Part shown: positions 3,019-22,908 of the stretch, in pieces | Layout: each line of letters starts with the position of its first letter | How positions within the stretch are numbered: position 1 is the first letter of the stretch | Origin: a virus | Direction: 5' to 3' (one strand) | IMG/VR virus record: IMGVR_UViG_3300017963_000239 | Coordinates: 17,880-81,879 of that record | Length of the DNA stretch: 64,000 nucleotides | Notes under the pieces: generated by a model | Database searches by the model: none | What the model was told of the DNA's origin: nothing | Seen by the model: the letters and a program-made list of their open reading frames with translations, nothing else | Program-made: the position numbers and the translations under genes

Positions 3019-3068
3019 GGGCCAGTAGCTCAGTAGGTTAGAGCGTCCGCCTGATAAGCGGGAGGTCG
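3019..3068 (+). pseudogene. Truncated resident tRNA-Ile(GAT) lacking T arm and 3' acceptor strand
   Basis: GGGCCAG-TAGCTCAGTAGGTTAGAGC-G-TCCGC-CTGATAA-GCGGG-AGGTCG, then non-tRNA sequence. Confidence 0.8.
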
Positions 3069-3093
3069 TTTATTCTAACCTGGACAATTTCTT

Positions 3094-3165
3094 GGACTGC
3101 AATGCTCTGGTTGAGCTACGATGCCTGATAAGCATCGTGGCGGGGTCCAATTCCCCGGCGGTCCA
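3094..3165 (+). tRNA. Atypical tRNA-Ile(GAT), replacement copy
   Basis: GGACTGC/GCGGTCC acceptor; GATGC-CTGATAA-GCATC; T loop TCCAATT; A at position 8. Confidence 0.75.
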
Positions 3166-3168
3166 CCG

Positions 3169-3744
3169 ATGAGCAAACAACGCAGGGATTCCCAGGGCCG
3201 TCTTCTTCTAGAATTTCGGTGTCCTTGTGGGAAGAGGTTCTGGGCACGCCCCAGACCTCCGAACAAGTCGGGGAAGCGGTATTGTAGCTTGGTGTGCTAC
3301 GGGAGGCTTAGGGACTTTTCTGGATCTAAAAACCCCAACTGGAGGGGAGGGTCGTTCCAGAGTGGCAAGGGTTACTGGTATGTTCATATGCCAGATCATC
3401 ACCGAGCGATGAAGAATGGCTACGTCAAGAGGGCGGATGTTGTAGCCGAGAAGAAGATCGGGAGGAAGTTGTTGCCTAACGAGGTGGTGCACCACGAAGA
3501 TTCAGATCCGAGCAACGACAGCCTAGACAACCTAGTGGTCAAGGACTCCCTAGCGCATATCAGAGAGCACGCAGTGAAGAGGCGAAAGCCTAAGAAGTCA
3601 AAGAAGGCTCGAAAGTCTGTTTGTTGGCCCTCCGATAGCGTGCTTTTGGAGATGGCTAAGACCATGACACAGCGCCAAATGGCAACGCTTCTTGGGTGCA
3701 GTCAGCCCGCCGTATTCTATCGCCTGCACCGTTCTCGTCGTTGA
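3169..3744 (+). CDS. HNH endonuclease with C-terminal HTH (Ile cassette)
   Basis: NPNWRGG, EVVHHEDSDPSNDSLDNL, TQRQMATLLGCSQPAV. Confidence 0.85.
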   Translation: MSKQRRDSQGRLLLEFRCPCGKRFWARPRPPNKSGKRYCSLVCYGRLRDFSGSKNPNWRGGSFQSGKGYWYVHMPDHHRAMKNGYVKRADVVAEKKIGRKLLPNEVVHHEDSDPSNDSLDNLVVKDSLAHIREHAVKRRKPKKSKKARKSVCWPSDSVLLEMAKTMTQRQMATLLGCSQPAVFYRLHRSRR

Positions 3745-4161: not shown

Positions 4162-4191
4162 GGGCCTGTAGCTCAGCTGGGAGAGCGCTTC
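4162..4191 (+). pseudogene. 5' half of disrupted resident tRNA-Ala
   Basis: GGGCCTGTAGCTCAGCTGGGAGAGCGCT identical to the start of intact tRNA-Ala at 5462. Confidence 0.85.
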
Positions 4192-4207
4192 GTGCTACAC
4201 TGGCAAA

Positions 4208-4699
4208 ATGCTGGAAGTGGTTGTGAGGTACGAGAAACCTGGAGATCCGTATGTCCGTGTTCGGCTGTCGGATGGCCGGGTCGTGCGTGAGCACAGGTTC
4301 ATCATGGAGTGCAAGCTAGGTCGGAAGCTCTCCCCTAGCGAGCACGTCCATCATAAGGACTTGAACCCCCGGAACAACGAGGAGAGCAACTTAGAATTGA
4401 AGTCGCGGGCGGATCACTGCCGCCTGCACCGCCCTGTGGCGCGGAAGGTTAGACTGCGCTGTCCTACTTGCGGGTGTTGTTTCGAACGCACTGCCAGGTA
4501 TGTCAGGTCCAAGAAGAAGCTAGGCCAGCACAGTTTCTTCTGCGGTCGTAGCTGCCGGGGACCTAGGGGCGGAGAAACAACACGAAAGGTCACCGCGCAT
4601 GGGTCTCGCGGAGGCTATTTGAGGGGCTGTCGGTGTGCTGAGTGTCGAGAGGCGCAGGCGCACTACATGCGCGAGTACAGATCAAAGGGGCTGTGGTGA
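4208..4699 (+). CDS. HNH endonuclease (Ala-GGC cassette)
   Basis: REHRFIME..LGRKL...EHVHHKDLNPRNNEESNLE; C-terminal HG..GCRC..C module. Confidence 0.9.
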   Translation: MLEVVVRYEKPGDPYVRVRLSDGRVVREHRFIMECKLGRKLSPSEHVHHKDLNPRNNEESNLELKSRADHCRLHRPVARKVRLRCPTCGCCFERTARYVRSKKKLGQHSFFCGRSCRGPRGGETTRKVTAHGSRGGYLRGCRCAECREAQAHYMREYRSKGLW

Positions 4700-4757
4700 A
4701 AGGGGATCACGCAACCATGGCATGGTTGTATTACGGGTTCGAATCCCGTCAGCTCCA
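4687..4757 (+). tRNA. tRNA-Ala(GGC), replacement copy
   Basis: GGGGCTG/CAGCTCC with G3:U70; CAACC-ATGGCAT-GGTTG. Confidence 0.9.
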
Positions 4758-4774
4758 CTAGGGACCTTCCGGTC

Positions 4775-4812
4775 GGCGGGGGTCGGGGGTTCGAGTCCCC
4801 CTAGGTCCACCA
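4775..4812 (+). pseudogene. 3' half of disrupted resident tRNA-Ala
   Basis: GGGTC-GGGGG-TTCGAGT-CCCCC-TAGGTCC-A-CCA; pairs with GGGCCTG at 4162. Confidence 0.85.
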
Positions 4813-5280: not shown

Positions 5281-5460
5281 ATGGCGACGAAGAAGGTGAT
5301 TGTCGACTTCGACGAGGACATCCAGAACCTGCGCGACCCCGAGACAGGCCGTTATGTCGAGCTGAACTCCGTTGTGGGAGCCAAGGTCGTAGGGGTGGAG
5401 CGGGGTGAGGACGACCAGCTCGTGTTGATCCTCGAAGGGGTCGAAGACGAAGAAGACTGA
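5281..5460 (+). CDS. Hypothetical acidic 59-aa protein
   Basis: Open frame with genome-typical codons behind a TTGACT promoter-like motif. Confidence 0.6.
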   Translation: MATKKVIVDFDEDIQNLRDPETGRYVELNSVVGAKVVGVERGEDDQLVLILEGVEDEED

Positions 5461-5461
5461 C

Positions 5462-5537
5462 GGGCCTGTAGCTCAGCTGGGAGAGCGCTGCGTTCGCAAT
5501 GCAGAGGTCAGGGGTTCGATTCCCCTCAGGTCCACCA
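5462..5537 (+). tRNA. tRNA-Ala(CGC)
   Basis: CTGCG-TTCGCAA-TGCAG; G3:U70; CCA. Confidence 0.9.
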
Positions 5538-5630
5538 GCTCCGGAGCCAAGTCTGTGGGCTCAGTAGCTACACGCGGAGTGACGCCCGCAGCCGGAGTTA
5601 GGAGCCTCGCCAGCGCAGCGCGGCTCTGTT

Positions 5631-5660
5631 GGGCTCATAGCTCAGATGGGAGAGCGCGGC
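5631..5660 (+). pseudogene. 5' half of disrupted resident tRNA-Ala(TGC)
   Basis: GGGCTCA-TAGCTCAGATGGGAGAGC-G-CGGC. Confidence 0.85.
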
Positions 5661-5698
5661 ATATTGCAACTGGAGATCGTCGCTGATACTGTACCTGT

Positions 5699-6088
5699 AT
5701 GGGGTACAAGTTCGTTAAGGCTCCCTCTAGCTATCCGGGCAGAACGTATCGCTGGGGCAACCGAGTTCTGGAGCACCACTTGGTATGGTGGGAGAACACA
5801 GGACAGGTCGTTCCGGAAGGGTACGTTGTTCACCATCTGAATGAAGACAAGGAGGACAATCGTTTCGGGAACCTCGCGCTGAAGAAGCGTGGGGAGCACA
5901 CAACGGATCACCAATTGAAGGATCCGCCTGTGGCGTTGGTGTGCTCTTGGTGCGGGAAGAAGATCGAACGTAGCTCTAGAGATGTTCGAAGCAAACGCAA
6001 GCAAGGGCAGAGTCGTTTCTTCTGTTGTTCCGCTCACGCAGCCGCTGCGGGTTGGTCGAGCAGAAGAGCGAGAGGGGTCATCGTCTAA
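5699..6088 (+). CDS. HNH endonuclease (Ala-TGC cassette)
   Basis: LEHHLVWW...VVHHLNEDKEDNRFGNL; CxxC...FFCC. Confidence 0.9.
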   Translation: MGYKFVKAPSSYPGRTYRWGNRVLEHHLVWWENTGQVVPEGYVVHHLNEDKEDNRFGNLALKKRGEHTTDHQLKDPPVALVCSWCGKKIERSSRDVRSKRKQGQSRFFCCSAHAAAAGWSSRRARGVIV

Positions 6089-6145
6089 TCGGGAGGACGC
6101 TAGCCTTGCACGCTGGTAATACGGGTTCGAGTCCCGTTGGCTCCA
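6074..6145 (+). tRNA. tRNA-Ala(TGC), replacement copy
   Basis: GGGGTCA/TGGCTCC; CTAGC-CTTGCAC-GCTGG. Confidence 0.9.
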
Positions 6146-6250
6146 CTGCGGCAACGTGTGGTCGTCCGCAGGGCTTGACCCGTCCCTGCTAAGTGATCAC
6201 GCAAGATCCCTAACGGGTCGCACAAAGCCGGAAGGCGTGGGGACGCCGCG

Positions 6251-6296
6251 CCTTGCAAGCCTGAGGTCGGGAGTTCGATCCTCCCTGAGTCCACCA
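6251..6296 (+). pseudogene. 3' half of disrupted resident tRNA-Ala(TGC)
   Basis: CCTTGCAA-GCCTG-AGGTC-GGGAG-TTCGATC-CTCCC-TGAGTCC-ACCA; TGAGTCC pairs with GGGCTCA at 5631. Confidence 0.9.
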
Positions 6297-6743
6297 ATGC
6301 AGACGTTCCTACCCTTTCCGGACTTTCAGAGATCTGCCTCTGTGCTCGACTGGCGGCGTCTGGGCAAGCAGCGCATCGAGGCGAGGCACATCGTGGAGGT
6401 GCTTCTAGGCATCAAGCCTCACAGTCGTTACCGGAACCACGCGGCGGTCCGCATGTGGCGAGGCTTCGGACACTTCTTGTGTTCCTACGGCGTCGCCATC
6501 TGCCAGGAGTGGCGTGGGCGTGGCTACCGAGATCAGCAGCTCGAAGCCTTCCAACGCCTGCGGAAGCTCGCCGAGCGCGAGGATCAACACGGAACGCCGC
6601 CTTGGTTTGGAGACGCTGCGTTCCACGCGGCGCACCGAGCTGCTTTGCTCGCCAAGGCTCCGGAGTGGTACGGCCAATTCGGATGGCAGGAGATCCCGCT
6701 CGTGGACTACGTGTGGCCTGCCGGTGTAGCCTATGGCGCATGA
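6297..6743 (+). CDS. Pyrimidine-dimer DNA glycosylase-like (MSMEG_6728 family) protein
   Basis: MQTFLP.PDF..SA..LD.RRLGKQR.EA, HAAVRMWRG, PPWFG...FH..HR..LL.K.P.WY. Confidence 0.8.
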   Translation: MQTFLPFPDFQRSASVLDWRRLGKQRIEARHIVEVLLGIKPHSRYRNHAAVRMWRGFGHFLCSYGVAICQEWRGRGYRDQQLEAFQRLRKLAEREDQHGTPPWFGDAAFHAAHRAALLAKAPEWYGQFGWQEIPLVDYVWPAGVAYGA

Positions 6744-7648
6744 GCACCATCGACGTCGTTCAGCTAGTCAAGGACGGGAAGGCGAAGTTCGAGTGGGCGG
6801 ACGTGCTGTCGACGCACGAGGACAAGGAGCTGACGATCAGCGTCTTTAGGGACGCGATGAAGTTCGACGACATCCCGGCGTTGACATGGGACTTCAAGCC
6901 GATTCCGGGAAACGACCAGATCTACAACGGTGTACGGCTGCCAGCTTCGGCTGACCAGTTGCAGCAGATCGCCGACGTGCTCGGGTGCATGCTGCTGACC
7001 CCGAAGGTCGTAGATCTCATCTGGCTCCAAGCGCAGCTCAAGTTCAACCCGGTCATCAACGACGGCCCCCCGCGGTACAACATCGTGGCAATCTCCAACA
7101 TCAACGATGTCCACGACCTCATTCAGAAGAAGATCGAGGGAGCTGGCGGTGACGACGGCTACAAGCTCATCGCCTGTGTGGGCAAGTACTGGGTGCTTTG
7201 CAATGCGCTTGGGCAGATGGTCGTGGTCCACGGAGATCTGCAGGCATTCAACTACGGATGGCCTGATGCGAACGCTCCTACCTCACGCCGCGGTGTCACG
7301 TCGGGCGTGAAGGTATGGCAGAACCTAGCGGGAGCCCACAACAAGCTGCACTGGGATCCATCGCAGACCATTCGGCTGATGTTCCAGTGGGCCTGGTTGA
7401 AGGTGGGCGATGCGGATCCCGTTCAGATCCATCTGCATGACGTGGCCTCCGATCCCGAGCTGGCGCCACTGTTGCACCACGAGGGTGAGCTGAAGGTGTT
7501 CCGGCAGTCGGGGGTGCCCGAGCCGAAGGGCGAGGTGCAGGAAGACGGAACCATTCTGATGCCCGAGATCATCATCTACGGCGCTCCTCCGAAGCACCCG
7601 ATGGTTCCCGTCCGCGAGGGCGGTCATCGAGTGAAGGTGATTTCTTAG
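6740..7648 (+). CDS. Hypothetical protein
   Basis: Long ORF, ATGA overlap with upstream gene. Confidence 0.7.
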   Translation: MSTIDVVQLVKDGKAKFEWADVLSTHEDKELTISVFRDAMKFDDIPALTWDFKPIPGNDQIYNGVRLPASADQLQQIADVLGCMLLTPKVVDLIWLQAQLKFNPVINDGPPRYNIVAISNINDVHDLIQKKIEGAGGDDGYKLIACVGKYWVLCNALGQMVVVHGDLQAFNYGWPDANAPTSRRGVTSGVKVWQNLAGAHNKLHWDPSQTIRLMFQWAWLKVGDADPVQIHLHDVASDPELAPLLHHEGELKVFRQSGVPEPKGEVQEDGTILMPEIIIYGAPPKHPMVPVREGGHRVKVIS

Positions 7649-7655
7649 ACGAAGT

Positions 7656-7733
7656 GCCGCTGTAGCTCAGTTCTGGCAGAGCACAGTCTTGGTAAGACTG
7701 GGGTCATCGGTTCGACTCCGATCAGCGGCTCCA
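7656..7733 (+). tRNA. tRNA-Thr(GGT)
   Basis: CAGTC-TTGGTAA-GACTG; CCA. Confidence 0.9.
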
Positions 7734-7736
7734 CAT

Positions 7737-7811
7737 GCGGGTGTAGTTCAGGGGTAGAACGTCAGCTTCCCAAGCTGAATGTCGTCGGTTCAAATCCGAT
7801 CATCCGCTCCA
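7737..7811 (+). tRNA. tRNA-Gly(CCC)
   Basis: TCAGC-TTCCCAA-GCTGA; U73; CCA. Confidence 0.9.
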
Positions 7812-18507: not shown

Positions 18508-18853
18508 GGGCTCGATCGGTTTCGACGTGGAGGAAAGGAAAGATTCGCGTGTAGGCAGCGCTCGACCTGCCTTGATCAATCGAGCAATTTGCAGTTGCCA
18601 ACGACAACAGCACCCCTCTGGCCGCGAAGGCGGCCTGAGCGCTGGGCGGGTAGGAGTCCGAGTACCCCGCAGGCGCCAATACCACACGGACTGTGCTCGG
18701 GGAGGTTGGCACCGCCGATGCCCGAGCGAGACTTTCGGTGCTGGACAGGCTGGAGAGACGGCCAAGCCCTGCTGTGAGGGTAGATCAGCTACGCACGTGA
18801 ACGAGGATCTTGACGGAACTCGGCGGACCAGGGTTCGATTCCCTGCGGGTCCA
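18508..18853 (+). ncRNA. ssrA: tmRNA; tag (A)NDNSTPLAAKAA at 18597-18638
   Basis: 5' GGGCTCGATCGGTTTCGAC; 3' GGGTTCGATTCCC...GGGTCCA with G3:U70; ANDN...AA reading frame. Confidence 0.92.
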
Positions 18854-18906
18854 CGAAGTCTCCATTGAGCATTGCAGGGAGCGTCCATAAGAGGTACATT
18901 GGTCGA

Positions 18907-19518
18907 ATGGCTCTTGTGGACGTGACCTGCGCTCAATGCGGGAAGAAGGTGAAGAAGCCGGTGGGAGAGGTGAACAGGTCGGTCAGGCTAGGGCGCAAGT
19001 TTTTCTGTGGCTCTGTCTGTTCCGGGTTGTTCAGCGGACAAGCTCGGGCTGCGGTGGAGGTCAAGAAGACGTGCCCTCATTGTGGGGAGGACTTCGTGAC
19101 GACGACCAAAGCACGAGCCAAGAAGTTCTGTTCTAGATCCTGTGCCAGTAAGGGGAGCATGTCCGAAGAGCGCCGGGAGGCGCAGCGTCTGGCGGGCCTC
19201 GCGCACGCGCAGAATCTTCTTTCCCCTGCGGAGACCTTGAAGCAGCGCGAAGCCTGGAAGTACGCAGCGCTGGAGAAGGTGTTGCGGGAGGCGGATCGGG
19301 ACTTCGAGTTCGAGTATCAGGTCGGTGGGTTCGTGTTCGACCTGGCTCTTTTGGACGAGAAGGTTCTGGTAGAGTTCGACGGCCCTCACCATCGAGGGGA
19401 CGAAGCAGAACGAGACAAGCACAAGGAGAAGATGGCGAAGAAACGAGGATTCGTCGTGGTCCGTCGAGAAGTAAAGGCGGCCTCGGTGATTTCCCCAGAC
19501 ACGATCAAGGAACTCTAG
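18907..19518 (+). CDS. Zn-finger plus DUF559/Vsr-like endonuclease (tmRNA cassette)
   Basis: CxxC/FCS repeats; FEYQVGGFVFDLAL...VEFDGPHH...D..K. Confidence 0.75.
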   Translation: MALVDVTCAQCGKKVKKPVGEVNRSVRLGRKFFCGSVCSGLFSGQARAAVEVKKTCPHCGEDFVTTTKARAKKFCSRSCASKGSMSEERREAQRLAGLAHAQNLLSPAETLKQREAWKYAALEKVLREADRDFEFEYQVGGFVFDLALLDEKVLVEFDGPHHRGDEAERDKHKEKMAKKRGFVVVRREVKAASVISPDTIKEL

Positions 19519-19546
19519 TGGGGTTCGATTCCCCGCAGGTCCACCA
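19518..19546 (+). pseudogene. Orphan 3' end (T arm, acceptor strand, CCA) of a tmRNA/Ala-type RNA
   Basis: GTGGGG-TTCGATT-CCCCG-CAGGTCC-ACCA, a variant of 18828-18853. Confidence 0.8.
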
Positions 19547-22275: not shown

Positions 22276-22305
22276 CGGGATGTGGCCTAGTCTGGTTAAG
22301 GCGCC
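22276..22305 (+). pseudogene. 5' half of disrupted resident tRNA-Pro
   Basis: CGGGATG-TGGCCTAGTCTGGTTAAGGC-GCC, then breaks off. Confidence 0.8.
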
Positions 22306-22331
22306 AAGCTTTTGCTAGGCTAGGCTACATC

Positions 22332-22841
22332 ATGTGGAAGCTGCGGGGTCGGAAGCGGGAGAGTAAAGGGCTGTCAGGGTACGAAACAGTCTGTCTTCCG
22401 GAGCACCCGAAGGCGGACGGTCGTGGTCGTGTGTATCTCCATAGGGTTCTGATGGAGAACCACTTAGGGCGCGTGTTAGGGGAAGATGAAGTTGTCCATC
22501 ACAAGAATGGTGACCCCCGAGACAATAGGATCAAAAATTTGGAGATCCTATCGAGAGTGGACCATGCCGCGTTCCACGGGAAAGCCCGACGCGGTCGGGT
22601 CGAAGAGTGCGAGTGCGCGAATTGTGGGACTCGGTTTGAGCGCCTTCGGAGGAAGCTTCAGGGGCAGCGAACCTTTTGCAGTAGGCGCTGTGTGATGCTT
22701 TTCTACAAGCCCCGGCCGCCTCGTACACCGAGGGTCGTAGAGCACGGCACGAACTCCATGTACAAGAACCACGGCTGTCGCTGTTTTGACTGCCGCCGTG
22801 CTCATGCCGAGGCCATGAAGTCGTACAGAAACGGGGTGTAG
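22332..22841 (+). CDS. HNH endonuclease (Pro-GGG cassette)
   Basis: LHRVLMENHLGR.L..DEVVHHKNGDPRDNRIKNLE; HG..GCRC..C module. Confidence 0.9.
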   Translation: MWKLRGRKRESKGLSGYETVCLPEHPKADGRGRVYLHRVLMENHLGRVLGEDEVVHHKNGDPRDNRIKNLEILSRVDHAAFHGKARRGRVEECECANCGTRFERLRRKLQGQRTFCSRRCVMLFYKPRPPRTPRVVEHGTNSMYKNHGCRCFDCRRAHAEAMKSYRNGV

Positions 22842-22908
22842 TTCAGCTTGGAAGAACGCCGCGCTGGGGGCGCGGAGGCCGGAGGTTCAAATCCTCTCAT
22901 CCCGACCA
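22832..22908 (+). tRNA. tRNA-Pro(GGG), replacement/restored copy
   Basis: CCGCG-CTGGGGG-CGCGG; CCA. Confidence 0.9.

Follow-up and report, generated by a model that had tools for sequence, protein, structure and literature searches.

A tRNA-Ala(UGC) gene in the tRNA array of a phage is divided into two halves by an insert of 590 nt (5660-6249), which is made up of a leader, an HNH endonuclease ORF, an intact tRNA-Ala(UGC) and a spacer. An initial annotation of the DNA had described such a gene, split by about 590 nt holding an HNH gene and a complete tRNA-Ala. Our analysis confirmed this observation: an HNH gene and a tRNA with the same anticodon lie within a split tRNA-Ala gene, the Pfam match (HNH_3) and the ARAGORN calls accounting for the contents of the insert. 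We consider it likely that the insert is a free-standing homing-endonuclease cassette of the HNH_3 type that entered the resident tRNA-Ala(UGC) gene, and that the linked tRNA, hereafter tRNA B, replaces the function that was lost.

The DNA belongs to record IMGVR_UViG_3300017963_000239 (81.9 kb, estimated completeness 54%). The window, the whole stretch of 64,000 nucleotides that we analyzed, corresponds to bases 17880-81879 of that record, and its GC content is about 0.61. By ARAGORN, the record has 49 tRNA genes as well as a tmRNA. Genes for a baseplate wedge protein and an EF-Tu-like factor are also present in the window. The source is a large tailed phage that is heavily invested in translation, and the presence of a tmRNA indicates a bacterial host.

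Two halves of one tRNA-Ala(UGC) gene

The features of the locus are listed in Table 1. The 5' half reads GGGCTCA-TA-GCTC-AGATGGGA-GAGC-G-CGG and comprises the 5' strand of the acceptor stem (GGGCTCA), U8-A9, the D arm (GCTC/AGATGGGA/GAGC), G26 and positions 27-29 of the anticodon stem (CGG). The 3' half reads GC-CTTGCAA-GCCTG-AGGTC-GGGAG-TTCGATC-CTCCC-TGAGTCC-A-CCA. It begins with the last bases of the 5' strand of the anticodon stem and continues through the loop (CTTGCAA), the variable loop, the T arm, the 3' strand of the acceptor stem and A73 to an encoded CCA.

Table 1. Features of the split tRNA-Ala(UGC) locus and of the second tRNA-Ala site (window coordinates).
Feature	Position	Strand	Evidence
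Second site: tRNA-Ala 5' fragment	4162..4189	+	blastn, 28/28 to the start of the intact tRNA-Ala(CGC)
Second site: HNH_3 paralog, 163 aa	4208..4699	+	Pfam 4.1e-7; phmmer against the other HNH 5e-14
Second site: replacement-type tRNA-Ala(GGC)	4687..4758	+	ARAGORN; no CCA, overlaps the HNH stop
Second site: old 3' fragment	4780..4812	+	variable loop, T arm, TAGGTCC, ACCA
Intact canonical tRNA-Ala(CGC), between the two disrupted genes	5462..5537	+	ARAGORN, Rfam
Old tRNA-Ala(UGC), 5' half (tRNA positions 1-29)	5631..5659	+	sequence, joined ARAGORN score
Left end of insert and leader, 39 nt	5660..5698	+	sequence, alignment
HNH_3 endonuclease ORF, 129 aa	5699..6088	+	Pfam PF13392, PHROG, homologs
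Replacement tRNA-Ala(UGC), tRNA B	6074..6146	+	ARAGORN 117.1; Rfam tRNA 58.9 bits, E 6e-12
Right-end spacer, 103 nt	6147..6249	+	fold test, alignment
Old tRNA-Ala(UGC), 3' half (tRNA positions 30-76)	6250..6296	+	sequence, joined ARAGORN score

As the initial annotation had claimed, the acceptor strands GGGCTCA and TGAGTCC pair across the insert. All seven positions are paired, among them G3:U70, the alanine identity pair. The anticodon stem is likewise restored to five full pairs by the three bases to the left of the insert and the two to its right. The annotation was also correct in placing the full CTTGCAA loop in the 3' half and in giving the old gene the same anticodon as the new tRNA (UGC).

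When position 5659 was joined to 6250 by script, ARAGORN called a 76-nt tRNA-Ala(tgc) with a perfect cloverleaf and a score of 119.3. This reconstitution and scan was one of the checks that had been suggested for the locus, and it bears out that both halves derive from one gene. The score falls in the middle of the range of the 49 intact phage tRNAs (100.9-125.9). As a control, 3000 joins of identical geometry were made at random; calls spanning the junction scored at most 112.5, and each of them depended on a genuine tRNA downstream.

The old gene is interrupted within the anticodon stem, on its 5' strand, between tRNA positions 29 and 30, and the earlier placement of the insertion, 5' of the anticodon loop, agrees with this. 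The joint itself had been given as 5660/6251 and was off by one base: the sole perfect joint is 5659|6250, and other joints produced mismatches in the anticodon stem. The hexamer TTGCAA of the anticodon loop is repeated at 5664-5669, just within the left end of the insert, so the left boundary is ambiguous by a few bases. When the native sequence was scanned in the intron modes of ARAGORN, only spurious anticodons (Pro or Asn) were returned, because the program places introns in the loop. Judging from their sequences, both halves appear to be non-functional scars that have not yet decayed.

One explanation for a split of this kind is that an assembler misjoined the halves and the insert across repeated tRNA sequence. 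Repeat-rich tRNA arrays break de Bruijn graphs, and contigs do end near the locus, at 5495/5509 and at 7782. However, the whole locus was found in a single contig of sequencing run X1, which covers 5509-7782 with 0 differences from the window. Run X2, which belongs to a different study, yielded a 2429-nt contig that spans 5491-7782 and departs from the window by 3 substitutions, with no gaps. Single contigs thus span the locus in two runs of different studies. This excludes an assembly artefact, and we give a chimeric join practically no credence.

The nuclease gene and tRNA B

The HNH ORF lies in the phage tRNA array, between tRNA-Ala genes. Its only Pfam match was PF13392 (HNH_3), with an E value of 8.8e-12 and 44.9 bits against a cut-off of 24.8, and it also matched several PHROG HNH families. 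No GIY-YIG domain was found among its Pfam matches. Homologs of the ORF in public data show 70-45% identity, those designated P0002-P0005 falling between 70 and 55%. Residues H45, H46, N54, N58, H67 and H71 are invariant among eight homologs and form the pattern HH..N..N..H..H of a beta-beta-alpha-metal motif. A single-sequence search against solved structures returned nothing, while a profile search gave a weak match (E 0.07) of the active-site region to I-HmuI (PDB 1U3E). At 129 aa the protein is a short form that does not have the C-terminal HG..Y..CRC..C motif of its paralogs, and it may be inactive.

The stop codon of the ORF (6086-6088) is located inside tRNA B. The two genes overlap by 15 nt, such that the first 15 nt of tRNA B are also the last HNH codons including the stop. 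tRNA B has the G3:U70 pair, A73 and a UGC anticodon, and it does not encode CCA. It is only 66% identical to the old gene, and around the break it differs from it at 7 of 22 positions. At the pairs 28:42 and 29:41, which flank the break, both bases are changed in tRNA B and the pairing is kept. Whether CCA is encoded does not separate old from new tRNAs: 27 of the 49 phage tRNAs encode it, with no clear pattern, and we rejected it as a marker.

The leader contains the motif GCAACTGG, which is common to the left ends of homologous cassettes. In the alignment, a left-end motif of the form (G/A)(C/T)A(A/C)CT(G/A)G was present at both Ala sites of this phage and at two loci of other phages (L086 and L005). 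At the opposite end of the insert, the spacer shares a GGGAC motif, close to its right end, with the second Ala site (site 1, 4162-4812). Its predicted folding is no better than that of shuffled sequences (z -1.29). When the ends of the insert were compared with tRNAs by local alignment, they matched no better than shuffles did (p 0.12-0.9). The sole exception was the 10-mer GATCACGCAA at 6195-6204, followed by ACGGGT, which matches tRNA-Ala(GGC) with p ~0.014, uncorrected, in 16 tests. The spacer may therefore hold, at GATCACGCAA, a relic of a cassette-type tRNA. Neither a sigma-70-like promoter nor a terminator was found within the insert.

It could be speculated that the insert is a 590-nt intron, self-splicing or protein-assisted, with the HNH ORF and a nested tRNA inside it. 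In that case splicing would continue to supply the old tRNA, giving the phage two species of tRNA-Ala(UGC). Group I introns of phages often contain HNH ORFs, and such introns also occur in bacterial tRNA genes. Our locus resembles the group I introns of tRNA anticodon loops and the I-HmuI system in that an HNH ORF lies in an interrupted gene and the HNH protein has a weak profile match to I-HmuI; the two halves, moreover, are perfectly preserved and reach 119.3 when joined. In contrast to such introns, the insert has no recognizable ribozyme, as Rfam returned no group I or group II match with E up to 10 across 5400-6500. Group I introns have a U before the 5' splice site and end in G, whereas here the base before the break is G5659 and the last base of the insert is C6249. 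The site is in the anticodon stem and not in the loop. Outside the ORF and the nested tRNA, just 39 + 103 nt remain for an intron core, and the 103-nt part is the spacer with the unremarkable z of -1.29. The sister cassette at 4162-4812 has no anticodon arm in its old halves, so no splice would yield a tRNA there. Finally, neither a tRNA-splicing endonuclease (PF01974) nor RtcB (PF01139) is encoded in the 82-kb record, although this is a weak argument since the record is 54% complete. As far as the sequence tells, the insert is no intron, and we regard splicing as highly improbable.

Recurrence in the array and in other phages

The same arrangement is found a second time at 4162-4812. There, TAGGTCC in the old 3' fragment pairs at 7 of 7 positions with GGGCCTG at 4162, and the break is at tRNA position 28. 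The old anticodon arm is missing, and about 20 nt separate the tRNA-Ala(GGC) from the 3' fragment. With its anticodon arm gone, this site looks like an older copy. The intact tRNA-Ala(CGC) between the two sites and the joined old gene share 77% identity, and the old-type genes thus cluster. On the other hand, the two replacement tRNAs, tRNA B and tRNA-Ala(GGC), are 71% identical to each other versus 58-66% identical to the old-type genes.

HNH_3 genes are frequent in this phage, with nine matches in the 82-kb record, the 129-aa HNH among them. The 3' ends of five of the ORFs fall within the tRNA gene that follows (Arg-CCU, Ala-GGC, Ala-UGC, Arg-CCG and Pro-GGG), and at the Ala, Pro and Arg sites orphan 5' halves of tRNAs are located upstream of the nuclease genes. 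At the Pro site, an intact tRNA-Pro follows the HNH gene, and its 3' strand pairs without mismatch with the acceptor strand of the Pro 5' fragment (CGGGATG). At a tRNA-His site (335-910) all four parts are present with a different HNH family, and the 3' piece is about 27 nt long. Overall, the order of 5' fragment, nuclease, intact tRNA of the same isotype and 3' fragment occurs at least three times in the window. That the arrangement recurs, both at 4162-4812 and at further sites of the array that have other nucleases, favors cassette insertion over chance.

Another possibility is that the locus is recombination debris. An array scrambled by unequal or illegitimate recombination and by segmental duplication could contain both a split gene and a spare one as by-products, the HNH gene being merely a common resident. 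Orphan pieces of tRNAs indeed abound in the array, some of them permuted-looking and away from any nuclease, the TTGCAA repeat sits at the left junction, and the spacer may contain a further tRNA relic. A precedent for such rearrangement is SegB-driven amplification, which duplicates units of nuclease and tRNA through microhomology and leaves the nuclease truncated. Debris would not be expected, however, to show the four-part order at least three times in one window, with the two Ala genes broken at nearly the same position (28 and 29), nor to share a tRNA 5' fragment upstream of the HNH gene with homologous loci of three other phages. Nor is tRNA B a local duplicate: its identity to the old gene is 66%, and the tRNAs closest to it are those of other cassettes. 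We therefore consider recombination debris an unlikely, though not a negligible, explanation of the locus.

It is also conceivable that the halves are kept for RNA roles of their own, as a two-piece, non-covalent tRNA or as decoys against host anticodon nucleases, and that the insertion is incidental. Consistent with this, the halves are undecayed and the genome contains many tRNA-like mimics. There is also a protein parallel, the nrdA gene of phage Aeh1, which was split by a homing endonuclease and works in pieces (PMC3045599). Elsewhere in the array, however, such fragments decay progressively: site 1 has no anticodon arm and the 3' piece at the His site is about 27 nt long, which argues against selection on the pieces. 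Moreover, after a nick at 29/30 the anticodon stem would be held together by no more than 3 bp. A function of the separate halves thus seems very unlikely to us.

In keeping with insertion of a cassette, the closest homologs of the 129-aa HNH sit in tRNA arrays as well. At L086 (67% identity) and L005 (43%), a fragment comprising the acceptor strand and D arm of a tRNA lies directly upstream of the HNH start codon and is followed by the left-end motif. At L007 (50% identity), an intact tRNA-Ala(UGC) with 84% identity to the reconstituted old gene precedes the HNH gene at a distance of 16 nt. At L005 and L090, the HNH gene is followed by a tRNA-Ala(UGC) with unusual arms and a lower score. L090 is syntenic with our locus and has one HNH gene between Ala(GGC) and Ala(UGC), where the present phage has two cassettes. 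Among the 10 distinct closest loci, there are 6 at which the end of the HNH frame falls in a tRNA gene or no more than 7 nt short of one. This clade of HNH genes thus accompanies tRNA-Ala genes across unrelated phages of 40-61% GC.

We also searched for relatives of the locus and for an uninterrupted allele. No near-identical DNA was found in isolated phages, and a protein search of isolated phages with the HNH sequence gave a single match, a hypothetical protein with 41% identity. The downstream 301-aa protein led to no relatives in IMG/VR or in three related virus records; one related record (G001) has a compact tRNA array that contains no Ala genes. The exact sequences of the old halves had no match in IMG/VR or in GTDB genomes, and no uninterrupted allele was found there. 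In run X3, from a wetland sample, one 151-nt record matches 5516-5659 and then diverges from the window 0-7 nt beyond that point, which is a single weak hint of the presence/absence polymorphism that is the hallmark of homing, and positions 5760-5943 within the HNH gene were uncovered. Contig joints that skip the insert, for instance 5656>6264 (17 other letters lie in between) and 4188>6253, were considered as candidates for the empty site and rejected, since they have short sides and differing anticodon stems. They come from tRNA-Ala genes of other, more abundant organisms.

A proposed route of insertion and comparison with known systems

According to the explanation that we favor, the mobile unit would comprise the leader, the HNH gene, the divergent tRNA-Ala(UGC) and the spacer, and would have entered between stem positions 29 and 30. 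From the insertion site, and by analogy with SegB and F-Tfl, we infer that the nuclease would recognize the anticodon-arm region in the DNA of canonical tRNA-Ala genes. The location of the HNH gene and the 5' fragments upstream of its homologs suggest this target, including a cut inside the tRNA gene. Insertion at 29/30 would destroy the recognition site. tRNA B would be refractory to cutting by virtue of its 7 changes in 22 positions, including the double, pairing-preserving ones at 28:42 and 29:41, and may in this way escape the nuclease while still folding. Repair of the break from a cassette-bearing genome would copy the nuclease and the spare tRNA together, and the element would spread without costing the phage its GCA/GCN decoder.

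Ordinary homing by flanking homology would replace the target and not leave both halves, so at least the founding event would need joining that was illegitimate (non-homologous) or mediated by microhomology. Once present, the halves would supply homology to uninterrupted alleles. Because the HNH stop codon is inside tRNA B, maturation of the tRNA by RNase P would remove the last HNH codons and could thereby limit expression of the nuclease, as has been proposed for segB. The tRNA of the phage may, however, be dispensable, in which case its "rescue" would be of little selective weight.

The closest known parallel in setting is SegB of phages T4 and T6, a free-standing GIY-YIG homing endonuclease in a tRNA cluster that cuts within tRNA genes and drives the preferential inheritance of its own gene and of the flanking tRNA genes (PMC2330249, PMC13096335). 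SegB also amplifies units of segB and tRNA in which the nuclease is C-terminally truncated (PMC2330249, PMC13096335). The segB ORF abuts the downstream tRNA, and tRNA maturation was proposed to cleave the segB mRNA (PMC2330249). Like SegB, the present HNH gene is inside a phage tRNA array and its ORF ends at or over a downstream tRNA. In contrast, SegB is a GIY-YIG and not an HNH_3 enzyme, recognizes a motif in the T arm and sits between genes, and there is no report of it lying between the halves of a tRNA gene or carrying a replacement with the same anticodon. Since it has an HNH_3 domain only and no GIY-YIG domain, the HNH protein is a functional analogue of SegB and not a member of the SegB family.

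Other systems share single elements with the locus. The F-Tfl enzymes of phage T5 are HNH-type, site-specific endonucleases encoded in the phage tRNA gene cluster (PMC2330249); compared by description alone, they differ from our locus in that a split target and a replacement tRNA are not described in the available part of that paper. In Aeromonas phage Aeh1, where mobE lies in nrdA, and in the metagenomic "fractured genes", a free-standing homing endonuclease splits a host gene in two (PMC3045599, PMC2677866). Those genes are restored by protein assembly or by split inteins, whereas here the gene encodes an RNA and is apparently restored by a second copy in the insert. A nuclease gene inside an RNA gene together with a replacement of the same anticodon is not described in the available portions of the literature on SegB, T5, Aeh1 and the fractured genes. 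A design of matching logic is synthetic: in ClvR and HomeR, two Cas9-based drives in Drosophila, the nuclease is linked to a copy of its target that has been recoded at the cut site (PMC7183144, PMC7968924). As in these drives, the nuclease gene and an entire copy of the disrupted gene form one physical unit at our locus, such that carriers would be functional and non-carriers cut. On the other hand, our locus is natural, protein-guided and of phage origin, and the cut and the resistance of the spare copy are predicted features.

Homing endonucleases are thought to survive hidden in introns or inteins, or between genes. The locus suggests a third solution, in which the nuclease enters an RNA gene directly and brings a nuclease-proof spare. 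Going further, we tentatively propose, as something that falls short of an even chance, a natural cleave-and-rescue drive for RNA genes, in which nucleases of several folds would each travel with an uncuttable, re-spelled copy of the RNA. It would have arisen repeatedly, including in unrelated phages, and would be a main diversifier of phage tRNAs and a source of the litter of tRNA halves. If confirmed, the solution suggested by this locus would be a natural counterpart of the engineered cleave-and-rescue and home-and-rescue gene drives, and it would explain both the odd spelling of nuclease-adjacent tRNAs and the many tRNA halves in phage arrays. It would also provide a set of nucleases with predictable targets in tRNA genes, each paired with a resistant variant. 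The folds proposed to take part are HNH_3, the classical HNH and a zinc-finger protein with a Vsr-like domain, and the proposed targets in this phage are Ala-UGC, Ala-GGC, His, Pro, Arg and the tmRNA. The 3' end of the tmRNA is duplicated around another nuclease-like ORF.

Interrupted tRNA genes elsewhere in the window

Fragments of tRNA genes beside nuclease ORFs occur at several further places in the window (see table). At the tRNA-Pro locus, an HNH_3 ORF terminates within an intact tRNA-Pro(GGG) gene and is preceded by a 5' fragment consisting of CGGGATG and the D arm. The acceptor strand of this fragment and the 3' strand of the intact tRNA are fully complementary, whereas the tRNA's own 5' strand pairs only with the help of a G-U pair. 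This difference suggests that replacement was confined to the 5' part of the gene. One of the two orphan fragments around tRNA-Arg(ACG), at 13130-13155, lies immediately upstream of an HNH_3 ORF that terminates within tRNA-Arg(CCG).

Features of the phage and of two related metagenome contigs, L090 and L109 (window positions unless indicated)
Feature	Position	Composition
Fragmented tRNA-His	335-910	5' part, 152-aa ORF, complete tRNA-His (810-883), 3' piece
EF-Tu-like GTPase	964-2148	amid tRNA genes
tRNA-Ile(GAU) 5' part	3019-3167	5' part extends through anticodon arm and variable loop; span includes second Ile-GAU arm
HNH_3 ORF	3115-3741	next after second Ile-GAU arm
Second split tRNA-Ala	4162-4812	HNH_3 paralog and replacement-type tRNA-Ala(GGC) enclosed by two old-gene fragments
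Part of the spacer of the tRNA-Ala(UGC) insert	6195-6225	GATCACGCAA, then ACGGGT
Run of tRNA-like genes	10030-10700	minus strand
tRNA-Val 5' half	10440-10466	
Two orphan fragments	12957-12981, 13130-13155	acceptor plus D arm, either side of tRNA-Arg(ACG)
tmRNA 3' end	18508-19546	followed by 234-aa ORF and second tRNA-like 3' end (19519-19546)
tRNA-Pro	22276-22908	5' fragment, HNH_3 ORF, tRNA-Pro(GGG)
Permuted-looking units	genome 7420-7535 (window -10460 to -10345); L090 1255-1352, 1590-1680	
tRNA-like genes with extra sequence	L090 1392-1500; L109 731-982	D arm separated from T arm

The 5' fragment of the second split tRNA-Ala matches the intact tRNA-Ala(CGC) at 28 of 28 positions; the 3' fragment includes ACCA, and the old gene has lost its anticodon arm. 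The fragmented tRNA-His retains the GUG loop in its 5' part, and its 3' piece, CGGTCAC-C-CCA, pairs with GTGGTCG. The 152-aa ORF located between these pieces carries a classical HNH motif rather than HNH_3, and the same interval holds a complete tRNA-His that differs from the split one.

The tmRNA gene lacks CCA at its 3' end, and the ORF that comes next encodes a Cys-rich motif that is the same as in the HNH proteins; read by eye, its C-terminal end looks Vsr/DUF559-like. The tRNA-like 3' end after this ORF does carry CCA and shares 96% identity with the end of tRNA-Ala(CGC).

A possible tRNA remnant in the spacer

The spacer of the insert that splits the old tRNA-Ala(UGC) gene contains GATCACGCAA. 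At 10 of 10 positions it matches the cassette-type tRNA-Ala(GGC), an intact tRNA linked to a nuclease ORF, in the region of the D stem and anticodon stem. Together with the ACGGGT that follows, it may be the remnant of one more cassette tRNA, which would indicate insertion in repeated rounds.

Unusual tRNA arrangements and a translation gene

In the permuted-looking units, the anticodon arm, the T arm and the 3' strand of the acceptor come first; a short hairpin connects them to the matching 5' strand of the acceptor and the D arm. The unit in this phage is of the Gly-UCC type with U73-CCA; the two in L090, which is syntenic with the phage, have leaders similar to each other. The extra sequence in other tRNA-like genes of the related contigs amounts to about 45 nt within the anticodon arm in L090 and about 200 nt in L109, and could represent small introns or further insertions.

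About 35 nt after the tRNA-Ile(GAU) 5' part, the Ile-GAU anticodon arm occurs a second time, now together with a T arm of its own (3094-3167 in the ARAGORN output). The minus-strand tRNA-like genes have non-standard anticodon loops (called by ARAGORN as Tyr-aua, Ile-aau and "undetermined"), and every other tRNA is on the opposite strand. The tRNA-Val 5' half in the same stretch shares 96% identity with positions 3-29 of tRNA-Val(UAC). The phage-encoded EF-Tu-like GTPase matches a PHROG translation elongation factor (E 5e-33).
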